A stretch of 64,000 nt of DNA from an uncultured Spirochaetota bacterium (GTDB lineage: Bacteria; Spirochaetota; Brevinematia; Brevinematales; JAOACQ01). The notes under the pieces were generated by a model. The model did no database searches. It had not been told where the DNA came from and saw only the letters and a list, made by a program, of their open reading frames with translations. Position numbers and translations under genes: made by a program. Location of the stretch: the NCBI GenBank assembly GCA_963783575.1, contig CAWAOD010000009.1:384001-448000 (forward strand), in the 5' to 3' direction. Below, one piece after another: positions 1-8,171 of this stretch. Each line of letters begins with the position of its first letter. Position 1 is the first letter of the stretch.

Positions 1-36
1 CTTGTTTTATAAATATTAGTATAATAGGAGGTTAAA

Positions 37-531
37 ATGAATCCTAATGTTAATTTGACATTATTTTCTAAGGATAGTTATCGCTCGACCCGACAAGGGA
101 AAATGGTGCTTAATTTTAGTGCGCTCCAAATATTTCCCTTATTGTGCCCAGTAGAAGAGTATAAATGGTTCCCAGGCTGGGAATGTATAATGGTATATTC
201 CAAAACAGGGATTGCAGAGAAAGATGCCGTCTTTTTAACCAAAGAAAAGGACGGTTCTAATATTGTCTGGACAGTTATCACATATGATCCACCCAATTTA
301 ATTGAATTTAGTATCGTAAACGGTCTGAATTCCGTCGAGAGATTCAGTATTATTTTGACAGAGATATCTCATAAAAGTACTGAACTTGAATGGAAAATCA
401 TGAATACATCTTATTCAAAAAATAGTATTGAACAAAACAAAAATCAAAATAATGAATCTTTTAATATTTTTTTAGAAGATAGAAAAAAGGAAATGGACTA
501 CTATCTACGGACAGGGAAAATAATTCAATAA
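37..531 (+). CDS. SRPBCC/START-like fold hypothetical protein (cassette gene)
   Basis: AGGAGG RBS; motif FPLLCPVEEYKWFPGW...WTVITYDPP; followed by attC at 552. Confidence 0.6.
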   Translation: MNPNVNLTLFSKDSYRSTRQGKMVLNFSALQIFPLLCPVEEYKWFPGWECIMVYSKTGIAEKDAVFLTKEKDGSNIVWTVITYDPPNLIEFSIVNGLNSVERFSIILTEISHKSTELEWKIMNTSYSKNSIEQNKNQNNESFNIFLEDRKKEMDYYLRTGKIIQ

Positions 532-551
532 TTATATTAATAAGGCACTGC

Positions 552-712
552 GCACAACAGCAAGTCAGCGGTTGCGCTCGAGTACTCGCTCCACCCAAAT
601 CGCCGGGCTGGTTGAAAGCAATTAAATATGTTAATTTTTATAAATGCTTTTTGATATAATATTTACAGCTTAATTAAATACCGGCGACTTCGCCGACTTG
701 CACCCGTTGTAC
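552..712 (+). other. attC-like recombination site 1 (161 bp)
   Basis: R'' GCACAAC 552-558 and R' GTTGTAC 706-712. Arms GCAAGTCAGCG / CGCCGACTTGC; inner stem ATCGCCGG / CCGGCGAC; AT-rich central loop. Confidence 0.8.
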
Positions 713-822
713 GAAAATTTCCGGGCCGAAGCTGATGATATTACTTTTCCGGCGTCCTTGCCGGAAAAATGATTTATTATTTAAAATGTATTAGAATTTA
801 TATCGATTAGTAGAGGTTTTAA

Positions 823-2160
823 ATGGCATTATTATCAGAAATTGAATCTGCACTAATGCTTGGAATTACAGTTGAATTATTAAATTCATATACAAAATAT
901 TGTCCAAAATCTGGCGAAAATGTTAAATTAAAATATAAAATAGTAAAAGGTATAAAACATTTTGAAAAAGATGATATTCTATTTTATCATAAATATTTAA
1001 ACAGTCCGTGGCCTATGCCAAAAAAAGGAGAAAGACCATATATTCCTAAAGCAATCCAAGATTTTATAAAGTTTGAATCACATTATTCCTGTTCAATTTG
1101 CGGTCATATGGATAATGGTGAAATAGCACATATTGAAGCAGTTTCAACAACACTAAATAATAGTCCAGATAATCTTATTTATTTATGTCCAAATCATCAT
1201 ACAAAATATGATTATGGTTACAAACCTAATAGTAATGTTACATTAGAAGAAATTCGTGCTTCAAAACTTTTAAAAAGAAATGCTTTACAAAGAGTGATGA
1301 AATATGAGTCTAATACAGTTAAATTATTAAAAGTTACATTATTAAACATAAAATCAATCAGTGAAAAACTAGCCTTTGAAAGTGATAAAACAATGCTAGA
1401 GATTTATAATGTTGAATTACAAAACATTGTGAAGAATTTACCAGAATATATAGATAAAGCAAATGATGACGCAAAAAAAGATATAAGTTTAGTAAATGAA
1501 AAAGAACTATTATCTAAAAATGCACCAAATTTAATAAAATATTCAAATATAATAATAAAAGATTCTTCTTTGTTCAAAACATCCGTTGACTCAATAATCA
1601 AGATTTCTAACGAAATATTTATTGATTTAGATGAATATCCCTGTCCTCATTGTGGAGGAAGCGGACTAACAGGATTACTCGGTGATATATGTGTTTATTG
1701 TAAAGGTTCTTGTGTAGTCTCAAAGCAAATGGTTAATAGTTATGACTCTAATAAAATTGATGAAGTTGAATGTCCTCATTGTGGAGGAAGCGGACTAACA
1801 GGATTACTCGGTAATATATGTATTTATTGTAAAGGTTCTCGTAGAGTATCTCATAAAAAGTTTGATCAGTATGATCCAGATAAAATCGATGAAGTTGATT
1901 GCCCTCGTTGTGGGGGAAGCGGACTAACAGGATTACTCGGTGATATATGTACTTATTGTAAAGGTTCTCGTAGAGTATCTCATAAAAAGTTTGATGAGTA
2001 TGATCCCGATGAAACCAATGAAGTTGAATGTCCTCATTGTAGGGGAAGTGGTCTATCAGGATTAGTCGGTAATGTATGTAAATTATGTAAAGGTTCATGT
2101 GTTGTAACTAAGATAGTATATAAAGAATATATCAAGAAATATGGAACTATTGGCGATTAA
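823..2160 (+). CDS. HNH endonuclease fused to four DnaJ-like CxxCxGxG zinc-finger repeats (cassette gene)
   Basis: HNH motif CSICG...EIAHI...NSPDNLIYLCPNHH; C-terminal 4 x CP(H/R)C(G/R)GSGL(T/S)GL(L/V)G(D/N)(I/V)CxxCKGS. Confidence 0.8.
   Translation: MALLSEIESALMLGITVELLNSYTKYCPKSGENVKLKYKIVKGIKHFEKDDILFYHKYLNSPWPMPKKGERPYIPKAIQDFIKFESHYSCSICGHMDNGEIAHIEAVSTTLNNSPDNLIYLCPNHHTKYDYGYKPNSNVTLEEIRASKLLKRNALQRVMKYESNTVKLLKVTLLNIKSISEKLAFESDKTMLEIYNVELQNIVKNLPEYIDKANDDAKKDISLVNEKELLSKNAPNLIKYSNIIIKDSSLFKTSVDSIIKISNEIFIDLDEYPCPHCGGSGLTGLLGDICVYCKGSCVVSKQMVNSYDSNKIDEVECPHCGGSGLTGLLGNICIYCKGSRRVSHKKFDQYDPDKIDEVDCPRCGGSGLTGLLGDICTYCKGSRRVSHKKFDEYDPDETNEVECPHCRGSGLSGLVGNVCKLCKGSCVVTKIVYKEYIKKYGTIGD
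1630..2106 (+). repeat. Intragenic tandem repeat, 4 x 129 bp (43 aa)
   Basis: TG(T/C)CCTC(A/G)TTGT...AAAGGTTC units start at 1642, 1771, 1900 and 2029. Confidence 0.9.
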
Positions 2161-2224
2161 AGCCTCCGCCGTCCTGGGCTCCGGCTTTTTGCTTAAACAT
2201 TCGGCCCGGAAAACATCGTACAAC

Positions 2225-3978
2225 GGCCTTGTAGAAAAAGTTAATTTCAGGTAATAATCCTCCATTCCCAAACAGTTTGTTTTTTTTGATCTGTCTGGAA
2301 TTACTTTATTTATATAAAACCGGGCTGAATTTACCGGCAAAGCTGCTTTTATTCCATCACTATGCCATTATATCCCTCCATAGACCTGAATTTTCCCGAT
2401 ATTGTGCACAGTATTATATAATACCCATTGAATATTCACTTTTCCCTTTCCCCTCAGCGTAAATCGATCCATACCTTTACATGCCCTTATATTCCCGAAT
2501 ACAGGCTCAACTATAGCCATTCTTTTCGCATAAAGCTTTCTGCCTTCAGGTGTATCTATGAACTTTCTCATTTCGTCCGAGTAATGTCTGTTATCCGCAT
2601 TTAACGGCCTTTTTGGCTATATAGTAGCTCTTATGGAACCTCCGTGTTCCCAAGGTTGTTTGATTTTATTTTAATTCTTCAGGAAGTCTTTCTGGAATGG
2701 ACAATTACGGCAGGCCGATAACCGGCACATATACTTCGCATATGTAATATGATTCACCGTATAGTTATATCTGAACCTGAGTTCCTCTCCTTTCTTGCAT
2801 ATATAAACATTATTTTCCGGATCATATTGAAAATCATCAATTGTATACTGCCCTTTCTTCGCAGGCTTATGTCTGTCAGCGGTTTCAAACCTGCAATCGC
2901 GCTTCCTGAAATTCGTATCCGGGATGACCGGTTTCATACCGTTTTGCGAAATATATTTCAGGTTCTTTTCGCTGAAATAATTGGTGTCCGCGGTGATTAT
3001 TTTATCCTTTAAATCTTTTCCCAATTCTACTTTTGCTTTACGGATCATCCCTTTCAGGAATTCCCCCTCAGACCCGCTCCCAAAAGCTTCGGGATATACC
3101 ACAACCTGATACTTCGAATCCACTACAGAAAGTCCGTTGTAGCCCTGGATAACACCATGTGAACTCTTTATTTTCGCACTCTCGTTGTCAGTGACATTGG
3201 ACTGCTTTTCACCATGCCGTGCCTTGTTTTTGGGTTTTTCACTTTCCAGAAACTTTTCTATCTTTTCAGCTTTCTTTAAAATCTTCTCGATCCGTGCCAG
3301 ATCTTTTTCCTTATCCTTCTCAGGAAAACCGCCGTCCTGATCACGCTTTTCATGTTCATCAAGCATTTCCTTAACCAGGTTTTCCAGCTTCTCTTTTTTC
3401 TTCTTCAAATCCTTAAATGTTCCGCTCCATTCCTTTGATGCATTTGACGATAGTTTGCACCCGTCCAGCGCGAACATATCCCCGCCTATGAGATTCAGTT
3501 CGTCACAAACCATCAATATATTCAGGAATACGGTATTTATCTCATTTTTCATCGAAGAAACAAAATCGGCGATTGAAGTAAAGTGCGGTATTGAATTGGC
3601 GGAAATGGCTTTGGCTATAATATTCGTTTTACACAAATATTCGATTTCACGTGATGTAAAAATACCGCGGGAATAGCTGTAGAGTATTATCTTCAGCATA
3701 ACCCGCGGATTATAGGCCGGGGCACCGGTAGCATCGTTCTTATACTTATTCTCAAAGATTTTAAGATCAATTCTGCTGTCAACAAGAAAACTGAGTGTAT
3801 ATTCAAATGTTCCCGGTATAATCTGCTCATCGAATGAGACAGGTATGAGTTCCATTTGATCGTAATTAACTTTCTTATGTCTTGCCATAATTGATTTCCC
3901 CTCTTGATTTTATTTACAATATATTTTAAAGTATAACCGTTATTTTGTACATGAATGACGGACTTTTTCTACAGGCTC
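2225..3978 (-). mobile_element. IS1182-family insertion sequence inserted in attC site 2
   Basis: Terminal IRs GGCCTTGTAGAAAAAGT / ACTTTTTCTACAGGCTC; AAC target duplication at 2222-2224 and 3979-3981; encloses the transposase. Confidence 0.9.
2368..3888 (-). pseudogene. IS1182-family transposase interrupted by in-frame stops (ORFs 2671-3888 and 2368-2571, same frame)
   Basis: GAPAYNPRVMLKIILYSY, ALDGCKLSSNAS, ITADTNYFS and C-terminal RMAIVEPVFGNIR motifs; stops at 2671-2673 and ~2617. Confidence 0.85.
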
Positions 3979-3981
3979 AAC

Positions 3982-4200
3982 AACAGCTTAGCGTTCCGTT
4001 CCTCGGCGTTGCGACGCCTGCGGTACTCAGGGCTGCGCCCACATTTGCCTTTGACACAGTTTTTGCGTTATAATATTTGAAGGAAAGTTTTATGAGAAAT
4101 AATAAAATTTTACACTTTAAGGAAGCATTTACACAAAAAGGCAAAAACTGCGCCAATCGCTGACACGAACGTCAAACGTCGCCAAGCTATACCGTTATGT
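3982..4200 (+). other. attC-like site 2, main part (R'' GTACAAC at 2218-2224 lies left of the IS; reconstructed length ~226 bp)
   Basis: Arms AGCTTAGCG / CGCCAAGCT; inner stem CAGTTTTTGC 4057-4066 / GCAAAAACTG 4141-4150; R' GTTATGT 4194-4200. Confidence 0.75.
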
Positions 4201-4301
4201 GCAATACTCGCGTTCGATTTAATAAATATTTATAGGGCGATTTAATTTTGCTTCTAAATTTTTTTTGATATAAAATAATACTTATAAATTTCAACTTTTT
4301 T

Positions 4302-4331
4302 TTGACTTTATTCTACTTTCTCATATAGAAT
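4302..4331 (+). promoter_or_regulatory. Putative sigma70 promoter inside the SRPBCC-EVE cassette
   Basis: TTGACT-N18-TAGAAT; AT-rich context lowers specificity. Confidence 0.35.
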
Positions 4332-4399
4332 ATTTGACAGATTAAAATTAAAATATAATTATAAAAATAAGTTAATTGTAAAGTAAGGAGGATATTATT

Positions 4400-4819
4400 A
4401 TGATAAGTAAATCATTTTCAACAACAACTAAGAAGGTTTCAAAAGAGCAACTTTGGAAGCTTATGTCCCACATCAATGATTGGAAAAAGTGGGATAACAC
4501 AGTTGAATATTCTGAACTTCAAGGAGACTTTAAAACTGGATCAACATTTATTTTAAAACCTAAAGAAGGACCAAAAGTAAAAATAAAATTAATTGAAGTA
4601 AAACCAAATAATTATTTTAAAGACTGTACTATATTTCCTTTGGCTAAAATGTTTGGAGAACATTGGTATGAGGAAACGTCTGATGGCGTAAAAATTACTG
4701 TAACGATGACTATAAAAGGTATTCTGTCCTTTTTATGGTATAAAATAGTTATGAAGGAATTAGTTGAACATCTTCCGGAAGATGTAAAAAATCAAATTCA
4801 AGCTGCATATAAGTTATAA
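4400..4819 (+). CDS. SRPBCC family (polyketide cyclase/dehydrase-like) protein
   Basis: AAGGAGG RBS; motif WKLMSHINDWKKWD...LQGDFKTGS...KPKEGP. Confidence 0.8.
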   Translation: MISKSFSTTTKKVSKEQLWKLMSHINDWKKWDNTVEYSELQGDFKTGSTFILKPKEGPKVKIKLIEVKPNNYFKDCTIFPLAKMFGEHWYEETSDGVKITVTMTIKGILSFLWYKIVMKELVEHLPEDVKNQIQAAYKL

Positions 4820-4873
4820 TTTATTTGCACTATAATTAGAGTAATCTAGAAGATTTATAAAAGAGGTATTAAT

Positions 4874-5305
4874 ATGAAATATTGGATTAATACAGTTTCA
4901 AAAGATCATGTTATGATTGGTAAAAAAAATGGAATAGTTCAAGCCAATCATGGAAAATTATCACCATTGAAACGATTAAAAGTTGGAGATCAAATAATTT
5001 ATTATTCGCCGAAAACCTCATTCGAAAATGGTGAACCTTTAAAAGCATTTACAGCAATTGCAGAAATAATCGATGAAAAAATATATCAAATAGAATTAAG
5101 TGATGACTTTAAACCATATAGAATAAATGCTAAATATTTGGATTGCAATGAAGTTAAAATTGAACCTCTGATAGAAAGTTTAAATTTTATTAAGAATAAA
5201 AAATCTTGGGGTTATATGTTTAGATTTGGATTATTTGAAATAACAAAACATGATTTTGATTTGATTTATTCGATGATGAAAAAACAACGCGAGTACAGCA
5301 CATAA
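4874..5305 (+). CDS. EVE domain-containing protein
   Basis: MKYWINTVSKDHV...HGK...LKVGD.IIYYSP...WGYMFRFGLFEI; the stop codon TAA lies within R'' ACATAAC. Confidence 0.9.
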   Translation: MKYWINTVSKDHVMIGKKNGIVQANHGKLSPLKRLKVGDQIIYYSPKTSFENGEPLKAFTAIAEIIDEKIYQIELSDDFKPYRINAKYLDCNEVKIEPLIESLNFIKNKKSWGYMFRFGLFEITKHDFDLIYSMMKKQREYST

Positions 5306-5604
5306 CGGCCTTGTAGAAAAAGTTAATTTCAGGTAATAATCCTCCCTTTCCAAACAGCATGTTTTTTTTGATCTGTCCGGAATCACTTTTTTATATAAAA
5401 CCGGGCTGAATTTACCGGCAAAACTGCTTTTATTCCATCACTATGCCATTATATACCACCATATGGAAATGTCAAGAGTTTTTCCCATATCTGCGCTCGG
5501 GTAATTTCCCACCCCTTCCACAAGAGTATTTCCCATATGCTTCACAAGAGTTTTCCCCATACCTTCCACGTGAGTATTTCCCATAGTGAGGAGGCAAAGA
5601 ATGG

Positions 5605-6354
5605 TTACTCAACCTCCTTATTCAAATTTTGTATTCTGTAAGATTCTCCGCTCAAGTTATAAATATTTGAATGATGTAAAAGCCTATCCAGAAGAGCGGT
5701 TGTCATAATCGGGTCTCCCATCATTTCAGCCCAATCCTGAAATCCCTTATTCGATGTTATCACAATTGATGTCTTTTCATACAATTCACTTACAAGACTA
5801 AAGAATAGATTTGCCTCCTTCTTTTCGATAGGTGTGTAACCTATCTCATCAATGATTAATAAGTGTGACTTCATCATCCGGTTCAGCCTGAAAGCAGAGC
5901 TTCTCTGGATGTCCGCCGTTTTCAGAAACTTAATGAGAGTAGTCATCCTTTCAAAGCAGACAATATATCCCTTTTCAACTGCCCGGATTCCGATACTAAT
6001 TGCCAGATGCGTTTTCCCCAGCCCCGGAGACCCAAAGAACAACAGGTTATGATGATTATCAATCCAGCAGAAATCCAATAGCTGTGAAACATCCATTTTA
6101 GATATTCCATTCACTTTTTCAAAATTAAAACCTTCCACATCTTTGCGGACCGGGAAGTGTGCTCCTGCCATATTCCGCTGAAAACGTTTTTCCACTCTAT
6201 AATTCAATTCCAGAGAAAGCAGCCTCTGCAGAAAACTCAGATAAGACTCTTTTGCCTTTTCAGCCTCACCAATTTCCTCATCAATCCGTTTTATCATACC
6301 CTTCAACCCGAGAGTTGTAAGCGCAGTTATGATTTGTTCTCTTATCTTCAACAT
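5605..6354 (-). CDS. istB: IS21 helper ATPase IstB
   Basis: Walker A GSPGLGKT, Walker B LLIIDEIGY, ITSN and ALLDRLLHH motifs. Confidence 0.95.
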   Translation of the reverse strand: MLKIREQIITALTTLGLKGMIKRIDEEIGEAEKAKESYLSFLQRLLSLELNYRVEKRFQRNMAGAHFPVRKDVEGFNFEKVNGISKMDVSQLLDFCWIDNHHNLLFFGSPGLGKTHLAISIGIRAVEKGYIVCFERMTTLIKFLKTADIQRSSAFRLNRMMKSHLLIIDEIGYTPIEKKEANLFFSLVSELYEKTSIVITSNKGFQDWAEMMGDPIMTTALLDRLLHHSNIYNLSGESYRIQNLNKEVE

Positions 6355-7901
6355 TGCCGGCCCCCGATGGAGTCACAGAAACTCTGGTATTTCCCGATGT
6401 CTGATTTAGCTACTTCAAGATAGTGTTCAGGATTCACTGAAGGCCTGACAATCTTTTCAACATTCAAGGGTATTTCTGCCTTTTCTGTTATAAAACAGTT
6501 CAGGTAATTATCCCACAAATCCTTCATGGAATAACTATCACTCTCCAGGCAGTTTGAGATCGCTTGTGTAAGCTTCCCGGTATCAATTATCTTGTCCCTG
6601 AAGTATTTTCTTCCGGAAAGACATTGGTCCCTTACATAACGATTGAACTTCCTGAAATTACATTCAAGAAAATCCTTCCAGCCGGGAATATCAAAGTACC
6701 CGCTTACTTCTTCTTTCAATAACTGCACAGTCTTTCCCATTTCCCGGATCATTGACCTGTTGGTTACAATCTGCCCCGGAATCACTGAAAGCCGGTATTC
6801 GGCGATTTGCTCTCCCGTTATCCTGTCAAAGACAAAAAGCCGACTGCCCGTCTTGTAGATGTCCACCGAACCGTTCCTGTATTTTTCGGGAATATCATAC
6901 TGGCTTGCATCAACTGCGATCCGGCATTTATCGCTTACACTGCGCTCTTCCCTTGCTCCTATCCTGTCTTTACGGAATATCGAATTCCTGACAGATTGGA
7001 GATATGGTCTTTCCGTTTCAATCTCTATCAGTGGTATTTTCATTGTAGCCTGGGATATTCTCCCGTTGGCTTTTCTTTCCAGCCATTTCATCAGGCTTTC
7101 TTCCGCTTCCATTAAACTGTTGAACTCCCGGACTGAGAAGAAACCGTGCTTGATGAATTTGACTACGTTTTCAATCTTTCCCTTACTTTCCGGGTCAGCA
7201 GGTCGGCACACATACATTTTAAGACCCATTTCCCCGATGAAATACTGAAAGTCTTTCGTGTAGATGATATCGCCTGAGTTCTCACTCGCAACCATCGTGC
7301 AGTCCTGATCGATGACAAGTTCATGCGGTATCCCGCCCATATATGCGAAACAGTCCAACAGATGATTGATAAGGTCTTCTGTCCGGAATGGCCTCTCCTG
7401 GAGGGCCGCATACTTAAAACGACTGGCGGATAACACCGCGGCAAATATGTAATACCTTCTGCCATATCTGTCGGTATATTGACCGAAATCAAGCTGGAGC
7501 TGCTTTCCATATGGCATGTCAGGCACTTTTGTGTAATACCGTCGCTTTTCATTCAAGGTAAGCTGCCCGCTTTCAATCAGGTAATGTACGAAATTCCTCA
7601 TCGTATTTTCATTCGCCGGTAGTTTGCCTTTTACCTCCAATAAATAGTCATACAAAGCAGACATATTCAGCCGGATGTAATCATTCTTTTCATATACTTT
7701 CAATATGTCTGTTTTTATTCCTTCGAATTCTTTTTCACGGAAAGAGAATTCCATCAGGCTTTTCTGGTATTCGGAATCGTTCATAGCCCAATATTTTCGG
7801 ACTGTCTTAATATCTATTGACAGTTCCCGGGATACACCATTTTTACTTTTCCCCAAAAGTTTCAGTTTTTTTATGTCCTGATACATAATATTTTTCACCA
7901 T
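6348..7901 (-). CDS. istA: IS21 transposase IstA
   Basis: N-terminal HTH; QLDFG, VIDQD and ESKGKIE DDE motifs; overlaps istB. Confidence 0.95.
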   Translation of the reverse strand: MVKNIMYQDIKKLKLLGKSKNGVSRELSIDIKTVRKYWAMNDSEYQKSLMEFSFREKEFEGIKTDILKVYEKNDYIRLNMSALYDYLLEVKGKLPANENTMRNFVHYLIESGQLTLNEKRRYYTKVPDMPYGKQLQLDFGQYTDRYGRRYYIFAAVLSASRFKYAALQERPFRTEDLINHLLDCFAYMGGIPHELVIDQDCTMVASENSGDIIYTKDFQYFIGEMGLKMYVCRPADPESKGKIENVVKFIKHGFFSVREFNSLMEAEESLMKWLERKANGRISQATMKIPLIEIETERPYLQSVRNSIFRKDRIGAREERSVSDKCRIAVDASQYDIPEKYRNGSVDIYKTGSRLFVFDRITGEQIAEYRLSVIPGQIVTNRSMIREMGKTVQLLKEEVSGYFDIPGWKDFLECNFRKFNRYVRDQCLSGRKYFRDKIIDTGKLTQAISNCLESDSYSMKDLWDNYLNCFITEKAEIPLNVEKIVRPSVNPEHYLEVAKSDIGKYQSFCDSIGGRQC

Positions 7902-8171
7902 TCCTGCCTTCCTTTAATGAATTTTCATTAAAGGTAATCTTCAAGCCTCTCTATGGGAAATCTGTTTGTGACAGGTATGGGAATTTCATTTATTGCTACC
8001 CTGGTAAATTAGTTTATCATTTCCACCATAGACCTGAATTTTTCCTGTAAAGAACAAAGCCTGCTTATGTGCGCCCCGCAACATTAACGCCATTTCCGAT
8101 TGAGATGATGACAATTTGTTCGTTAGGAATATGGGCCAATTAGACGCTTACTGATTGTCAGTATAAAGATT

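Follow-up and report, generated by a model that had tools for sequence, protein, structure and literature searches.

An IS1182-family insertion sequence at attC sites of a spirochaete gene-cassette array and its relatives in other phyla

The array end and its two insertion-sequence copies

We analysed a 64,000-nt stretch of DNA, called the window here, which comprises positions 384,001–448,000 of contig CAWAOD010000009.1 (assembly GCA_963783575.1) from an uncultured Spirochaetota bacterium, JAOACQ01. Within the window, the first 8 kb hold the end of a gene-cassette array that runs on the + strand. Short open reading frames (ORFs) are each followed there by a long imperfect palindrome, the attC site, which lies between boxes of the RYYYAAC ... 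GTTRRRY type. Two of these sites are interrupted by copies of an insertion sequence (IS) of the IS1182 family. An earlier note on this DNA had placed both copies directly after the AAC of the R'' box and in the same orientation, and the junctions at 2224/2225 and 5306/5307 confirm this. The left end, GGCCTTGTAGAAAAAG, begins at 2225 after GTACAAC, and the same 27-mer begins at 5307 after ACATAAC on the same strand, with 0 matches in 100 shuffles as the chance expectation. The features of this part of the window are as follows.

551–712, + strand: unoccupied attC-like site with GCACAAC, inner arms GCAAGTCAG and CCGACTTGC, and GTTGTAC; its build is that of the occupied site
823–2160, + strand: cassette ORF of 445 amino acids (aa) with HNH_2 and DnaJ-type CXXCXGXG zinc-finger repeats, upstream of the occupied attC
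2218–2224, + strand: R'' box GTACAAC; the 3-bp target duplication has its left copy in the final three bases (2222–2224)
2225–3978, − strand: IS1182-family element of 1754 bp (copy 1), with inverted repeats at 2225–2240 (left, GGCCTTGTAGAAAAAG) and 3963–3978 (right, reverse complement GAGCCTGTAGAAAAAG)
2368–2571, − strand: C-terminal piece of the transposase, 67 aa, split from the N-terminal piece by an internal lesion
2604–2682, no strand assigned: remnant of a 106-bp foreign segment in place of about 28 bases of the transposase gene
2671–3888, − strand: N-terminal piece of the transposase, 405 aa, with DUF772 and the start of DDE_Tnp_1 and without the C-terminal DDE_Tnp_1_6
3975–3981, + strand: GCTCAAC, a rebuilt RYYYAAC box beside the inner arm, formed by the IS terminus GCTC and the right duplicated AAC (3979–3981)
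3982–4200, + strand: remainder of the interrupted attC, with inner arm AGCTTAGCG and partner arm CGCCAAGCT on either side of a long central part, then a spacer and R' GTTATGT at 4194–4200
4400–5305, + strand: two-gene cassette encoding a Polyketide_cyc2-like protein (139 aa) and an EVE-domain protein (143 aa); the next R'' box contains the second gene's stop codon
5300–5306, + strand: R'' box ACATAAC, the second occupied site
5307–5463, − strand: IS1182-family copy 2, a left-end fragment 93.7% identical to copy 1
5464–8025, − strand: IS21-family element inside copy 2, with istA at 6348–7901, istB at 5605–6354 and CCATA at both flanks
8031–8045, − strand: short continuation of copy 2 past the IS21 element, about 15 bases; the sequence beyond is unrelated to the IS

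Copy 1 ends in CTACAGGCTC at 3978 and is followed by AAC at 3979–3981. The duplication that had been described around this copy is therefore present, with AAC at 2222–2224 and again at the right end. The terminal inverted repeats, GGCCTTGTAG... and ...CTACAGGCTC, are 16 bp long and imperfect, one indel apart. Copy 1 had also been called complete, which holds for its ends but not for its transposase gene, broken into pieces of 405 and 67 aa by the foreign segment. Among the eight long copies in the genome, which range from 1694 to 1798 bp (copy 1 measures 1757 bp and the intact C16 copy 1720 bp when each is counted with its right-hand AAC), only the copy at C16:115953–117672 has an intact gene, of 494 codons. 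C-numbers denote contigs of the window's genome (C3, C4, C5, C9, C12, C13 and C16). Since only one of the eight is intact, the rest would be fossils or would have relied on a transposase supplied in trans.

IS1182 elements have one transposase gene between terminal inverted repeats and measure about 1.3–2 kb. The element in the window shares this build, with a single transposase gene, terminal inverted repeats and a size in this range. The intact C16 paralogue (494 aa, about 93% identical to the frame of the window copy) scored 278.6 bits against the NCBIfam equivalog model NF033551 (transpos_IS1182; cut-off 270 bits) over profile positions 3–485 of 488. PF05598 (DUF772), PF01609 (DDE_Tnp_1) and PF13751 (DDE_Tnp_1_6) were all found above their cut-offs, and together with NF033551 they place the element in the IS1182 family, as the earlier note had proposed. 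In the window copy only DUF772 exceeded its cut-off, because the gene is split. The Pfam domain search of the transposase returned only DDE-type families and no DEDD or IS110 domain.

Over 158 aligned positions the two window copies show 10 differences (93.7% identity), a count close to the dozen in about 170 that had been estimated by inspection. Copy 2 is nearer to the C16 copy (96.3%) than to copy 1 (93.8% in this comparison), and the flanks of the two copies differ, in agreement with the earlier suggestion of independent insertions. Copy 1 is a mosaic: its left part resembles copy C5a and its right part is nearer to C5b. The full 106-bp segment, of which copy 1 keeps a remnant, is 100% identical in five other IS copies (C5:474960–475065 and four more). 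These five copies otherwise differ by 2–6%, which points to gene conversion or to a recent shared ancestor for this segment.

Some further observations concern the same region. The 823–2160 protein combines an HNH-type nuclease motif with four DnaJ-like CXXCXGXG units, which derive from 129-bp tandem repeats about 87% alike. The IS21-family element has near-identical copies (about 98–99.9%) at more than 10 other places in the genome, several of them within cassette arrays. At C3:134762, C5:64719 and C16:17173 there are also sequences in which (C)GTAYAAC leads into ATCGTGT....

Junctions and attC sites across the genome

Every junction of an IS end was tabulated over the whole assembly of the window's organism, which is 89.85% complete. 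All 18 left junctions lie directly after AAC, with 17 distinct flanks; the boxes that precede them are GTACAAC, GCACAAC, ACACAAC, ACATAAC, GCAGAAC, GCCTAAC and TGACAAC. Four further, more diverged left ends likewise follow GTACAAC or GCACAAC. At the other side, all eight right ends read GGCTC/AAC (a slash marks a junction here and below) and continue into an inner attC arm, and at least four kinds of arm sequence occur (GCGGCTATA, GCGCGTAGAC, CAGCTTAGCG and GGCATAGCT). A gene-less 109-bp derivative in C16 has AAC at both flanks and lies within a typical attC. Every copy in this genome has the attC body on the side of its transposase gene's 5' end. The earlier note had proposed attC targeting and had named a majority of copies at non-attC sites as evidence against it. 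The 18 junctions in cassette arrays support the proposal, and the tabulation contained no copy outside the arrays.

It could be argued that the element inserts widely and persists only in attC sites, where it does no harm. Cassette arrays are dispensable DNA, and other IS accumulate in them, such as the IS21 element of the window and a second IS1182-like element that sits within an attC body in C16. This explanation does not account for the same nucleotide, the single orientation and the same triplet at 18/18 local junctions and at 58/67 junctions of relatives described below. Nor does it explain why other neutral intergenic DNA contains no copy. The genome also has two further IS1182-like families (24% and 32% identical), and these are spread over many contigs. 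We consider survival in harmless places very improbable as the source of the pattern.

The larger of these two families, the 24%-identical one (ends ...CAGACTGTGTGAAAAC; C9:359539–360906 and about 30 further copies), is always found in the short palindromic context CCCTGA/.../CGAAGGG or its mirror. The family also appears to home to a repeated hairpin, one that is different from attC.

Two cassettes and the initial 388 bp of the IS make up a 2638-bp block that an array on C9 and one on C5 share at 99.85% identity. It starts exactly at the gene-distal GTTATAT, a cassette boundary, the attC bodies upstream of it are unrelated, and its other end lies inside the IS. The earlier idea that the IS may travel with its cassette fits this block, which runs from a cassette boundary into the IS. 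The block, the mosaic copy 1 and the identical lesion in five copies would also suit one ancestral insertion that was spread by recombination, through cassette shuffling by the integrase or homologous exchange, rather than by repeated transposition. The 17 different left flanks and the at least four inner-arm types at the right end argue against such a spread. Moreover, cassette shuffling would retain the neighbouring cassette, and the junction recurs in 63 unrelated assemblies that have their own attC sequences. A single origin of this kind is hardly credible to us.

Seven sites (C12:23373, C12:25011 and C13:203466, 204445, 208334, 209556 and 213752) carry GTACAAC, once TGACAAC, and then about 55 bases of left-end IS sequence. 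This piece is joined to a conserved stretch that resembles the central part of an attC body, and a degenerate R'-like box and the next cassette come after it. The sites look like an old deletion derivative that now serves as the junction for several different cassettes.

The attC sites of the genome were counted by an indexed search for boxes with paired inner arms, which gave 19 sites. Their outer boxes, GTACAAC, GCACAAC or GTTTAAC at one side and GTTGTAC, GTTATGT or GTTAAAC at the other, are of the RYYYAAC ... GTTRRRY form, with a local departure in GTTGTAC, which has T in the second R position. The paired inner arms (L''/L') are 9 bp long with at most one mismatch, as in an imperfect palindrome. 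The sites fold into a 7-bp outer stem and an inner stem, with branched central parts. Spacers are 1–3 bases on the R'' side and 2–3 bases longer on the R' (gene-distal) side at 19/19 sites. Cassette ORFs all point in one direction, and cassette units begin at the G/TT of R', as expected for integron cassettes. The usual length of an attC is about 57–141 bp; these sites measure 160–253 bp and fall outside that range.

Since the box next to the gene and the one distal to it mostly share a single 7-mer, read on opposite strands, the polarity of the sites was checked. An inverted polarity, which would make the occupied box R', was rejected on the strength of three observations. The C9/C5 block starts at the gene-distal GTT. 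In two arrays, the first cassette joins a conserved attI-like site at GTTAAAC or GTTGTAC without an intervening attC body. Finally, in the commonest attC type it is the gene-proximal arm that has the bulged base. Therefore, R', where crossover takes place, is the gene-distal box, and R'' is the box at which the IS sits. The attI-like sequence, with a palindromic ATATACGCAATGCGTATAT core, abuts a first cassette at about C5:458250, C9:382293, C4:7082 and C13:218517; of these four loci only C5 retains a tyrosine recombinase gene, which is frameshifted.

Across the 19 sites R'' was occupied at six and R' at none. R' on the other strand presents the same CGTACAAC and the same outer flank. Because R' is never occupied, the 7-mer alone is insufficient as a target. 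This contrast bears on a simpler explanation, namely that the transposase recognises a short double-stranded motif (here ...YAAC/A, elsewhere C-GTT/A-R), that attC sites are merely rich in the motif and that the palindrome plays no part. Besides the 6/19 to 0/19 contrast, this explanation is opposed by CGTACAAC sites outside the arrays, which are empty. The invariance of the triplet in the window's genome speaks for it; the relatives add evidence on both sides, and we return to the question below.

The IS end and the duplicated AAC together form GCTCAAC, the substitute R''-like box of the earlier note and a perfect RYYYAAC box beside the inner arm. The attC search detected GCTCAAC as the outer box at five occupied sites.

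The cassette at C5:459722–461135 and other cassettes each have a cassette-specific inverted repeat of about 13–18 bases just beyond both outer boxes. With these repeats outside the boxes, the attC stem would be much longer in the circularised cassette than in the array. The motif CACATTTGCCTTTG(A/G/T)CA, followed by a TATAAT-like hexamer, occurs at 4030–4075 of the window and in the equivalent part of other attC bodies, facing the downstream cassette. In the window it forms a promoter-like TTGCCT-18-TATAAT, with the match at 4045–4074 in the attC body. A promoter scan of positions 1–5500 gave 32 sites, with 24.8 ± 5.3 expected, a non-significant excess. It is a speculation that promoters carried by attC sites might select against insertions at R'.

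Relatives in other phyla

The transposase has thousands of homologues. A scan with one genome per species gave 79 loci in 63 assemblies (L-numbers denote these loci), and both ends were resolved at 67. Two right ends were mended by eye (the pattern was off by one), and a pair with CCA was treated likewise. The transposases are 38–85% identical over the best-matching segment, and 39–66% where most of the protein is covered. Their hosts belong to Spirochaetota, Desulfobacterota, Gammaproteobacteria, Nitrospirota, Planctomycetota and others. The ends read GA(G/A)N-CTGTAG-AAAAA, with CTGTCG in one group.

At all 67 resolved loci the same triplet is found on both flanks, which identifies a 3-bp target duplication. 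The triplet is GTT at 56 loci and AAC at two. When each locus is turned so that its transposase reads on the + strand, the element has the attC body upstream of it and GTT-RRRY downstream, and the gene's 5' end faces the body as in the window's genome; the longest flanking downstream ORF is co-directional with the transposase in 32/41 cases. The assignment of the site to R'' is right for the window's genome, while the usual site across the family is the GTT of R'. One genome of the same genus and one of the same family show AAC/IS/AAC followed by an inner arm, as in the window. The R'' position is a peculiarity of the spirochaete lineage formed by the window's genome and these two related genomes. 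The placement of the IS relative to the attC body is conserved, and the R' and R'' arrangements are mirror images by the dyad symmetry of the palindrome. Position, 3-bp duplication and orientation recur at many independent sites and are conserved across phyla.

The window's element has the ends GAGN-CTGTAGAAAAA, the 3-bp GTT/AAC duplication at the attC foot and the 5' end of the transposase toward the body that mark this lineage. Its local departures are the left end GGCC(T/A)TGTAG and the R'' foot. The terminal GCTC (GAGN on the other strand) is kept across the lineage and, with the duplicated triplet, rebuilds RYYYAAC or GTTRRR(Y/R) beside the body.

In several relatives the integron context is explicit. 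Desulfoluna spongiiphila AA1 has a canonical integron with an intact, divergent intI (461.7 bits); the element interrupts the R' of its third attC, 2.7 kb from this gene, and its transposase points the same way as the cassettes. A second genome, a metagenome-assembled genome (MAG), has an intI of 464.1 bits at 2.6 kb from its element, which also sits in R'. Integrases were checked in five genomes: these two have one beside the IS, the third gave an unverified match on the contig, and the remaining two gave only partial or degraded matches, below the cut-off and elsewhere in the genome. A copy in Pseudoalteromonas piscicida lies at GGC-GTT/.../GTT-ATAT of a clear attC, and many of the relatives' targets are textbook attC sites, for instance those at L046, L055, L065, L101 and L107. 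In unconstrained folds of the relatives' targets, the GTT is paired with an upstream AAC or AAT in 18/52 cases.

Seven relatives with CTGTCG ends (L040, L048, L053, L054, L056, L058 and L059) have CCA, ATC, GCA, GTA and GCT as duplications. They may form a sub-branch without attC homing.

We propose that an IS1182-family DDE element with a 3-bp duplication sits at the AAC/GTT foot triplet of attC sites and is likely located there by the palindrome together with the triplet. We hold this reading to be quite probable, and a widespread lineage of transposons homing into integron cassette arrays is likely. Several findings weigh against it. Nine relatives lie at triplets other than GTT or AAC (CCA at two, GCT at two, and CAT, ATC, GCA, GTA and TTT). 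A strict heuristic for boxes plus arms, which is crude, classed 12/46 targets as attC-like compared with 140/3331 control GTT sites, some of them true neighbouring attCs. Similarly, a crude measure of forced-pairing hairpin energy reached −25 kcal/mol or lower at 11/46 targets and at 16/377 control GTT sites inside IS bodies; this is an enrichment, and the separation is not clean. A Nitrospirota MAG (L087–L094, L096 and L104) carries nine 1811-bp copies at the GTT of a short GC-rich repeat of the GTGGGCTCGGC-GTT-ACTCGCCCAC type, and these repeats are scattered over two large contigs with no evident integron or attC. In public sequencing runs, the search gave a single match with 0.15 of the sampled words, and its contigs were short IS fragments with no joint across the element and no empty site.

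The status of the array itself is a further point of this kind, since the assembly contains no integron integrase above the TIGR02249 cut-off (265 bits). The best candidate is the frameshifted tyrosine recombinase at C5:457130–458190 (100.5 bits), which scores no better as IntI than as Xer. It adjoins the attI-like site and points in the same direction as the cassettes. This layout of recombinase and cassettes matches that of the 'reverse integrons' of Treponema, as outlined in sections of PMC6557892.

Finally, recognition of structure and recognition of sequence are not separated by these data. The triplet shows no variation, and A follows it in 10/11 right flanks of the window's and the two related genomes. 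Most relatives have C before the GTT and A after it, and the nine Nitrospirota copies lie at C-GTT-A in a dispersed short repeat with no clear attC. All of this would be expected if a short double-stranded motif were read directly. However, the motif beside the triplet varies between the window's lineage and the relatives, whereas the position at the foot and the orientation to the body are kept. The 6-to-0 contrast between feet that share a 7-mer, together with the varied inner arms, argues for a role of more than the 7-mer. Direct reading of a motif is improbable in our view.

Proposed mechanism and comparison with known systems

Under the preferred reading, in which palindrome and triplet together guide insertion, the transposase would make a 3-bp staggered cut at the foot triplet and the element would enter by DDE cut-and-paste insertion. 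The attC would stay foldable after insertion, because GCTC and the duplicated AAC rebuild an RYYYAAC box beside the inner arm. The IS could then ride as cargo of the upstream cassette. Movement of cassettes, followed by exchange between IS copies, would fit both the C9/C5 block and the mosaic copy 1.

The choice of foot was considered separately. Replication direction gave no usable signal on the array-bearing contigs, as judged from GC skew (20-kb windows) and the strand bias of long ORFs (40-kb windows). A rule based on spacer length or on the short arm was inconsistent between the window's genome and the relatives and was set aside. A more far-reaching possibility, which we put forward only tentatively and think doubtful, is that a DDE lineage reads the folded substrate of the integrase, inserts at the crossover-type triplet, rebuilds the core box, keeps the attC recombinogenic and so gains mobility as a passenger. 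Either foot would then be usable, and the foot would report which hairpin strand was exposed, for example on the lagging-strand template. If this were true, the insertions would be a natural record of attC folding in vivo.

The contrast between R'' and R' offers a handle on attC strand exposure. A widespread cut-and-paste DDE family of this kind would also provide a tractable system in which to study the recognition of a structured recombination site by a DDE enzyme. It bears on the decay of arrays, on their rearrangement (mosaic IS copies, duplicated blocks) and on the carriage of passengers. According to passages of PMC11089894, the IS5 family makes up 49% of cassette-associated transposases; we conjecture that attC-homing IS1182 elements could account for part of these IS5-like transposases.

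The targeting habit is real, specific and apparently unpublished. In the literature searched on IS1182, on palindromes and on IS or MITEs (miniature inverted-repeat transposable elements) in attC, with subscription journals and ISfinder outside our reach, we found no description of attC homing by the IS1182 family. Mobile elements that home to attC are already known. What appears to be new is attC homing by a different enzyme family, the IS1182 DDE type, together with the R'' foot in a reverse-integron lineage. For IS at attC ends, the IS1111-attC group, the work reportedly cited is that of Tetu and Holmes in 2008 and Post and Hall in 2009. Two integron papers from 2024 and 2025 name, in the sections concerned, only the IS1111 group as attC-targeting IS (PMC11089894, PMC12444791).

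Members of the IS1111-attC group (ISKpn4 and ISPst6, of the IS110/IS1111 families) are described in parts of PMC11187229 as entering one specific place at the attC end in one orientation. The window's element resembles them in its fixed attC position and single orientation. The enzymes differ: the same source attributes to that group a DEDD transposase guided by a seekRNA, circular forms and subterminal repeats, whereas the window's element has a DDE transposase, terminal inverted repeats and a 3-bp duplication.

Within the IS1182 family itself, IS1272 and TnSha1 of staphylococci are the closest parallel and give a precedent for hairpin targets. PMC4923244 and PMC5678879 report that they target hairpin-forming inverted repeats, at the base or in the stem, without a duplication or primary sequence preference, with deletion of part of the hairpin and in both orientations. 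In contrast, the window's element makes a 3-bp duplication at an invariant triplet, leaves its target intact and uses one orientation.

Group IIC-attC introns are likewise mobile elements that enter attC in one orientation, according to PMC3001079. However, they are retro-elements with a ribozyme and a reverse transcriptase, and neither was seen among the ORFs and domain matches of the window. The IS1202 family offers a likeness of another kind, as transposase-bearing IS that home in one orientation beside a tyrosine recombinase site, dif or pdif (PMC10132070). This is a different IS family, the sites are Xer sites and insertion occurs 5 bp from the site, whereas the window's element inserts in the crossover-type triplet. 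In the literature searched, the attC-specific invaders are the IS1111-attC group and the group IIC-attC introns, and a DDE family would add a third, mechanistically different route into the attC site.

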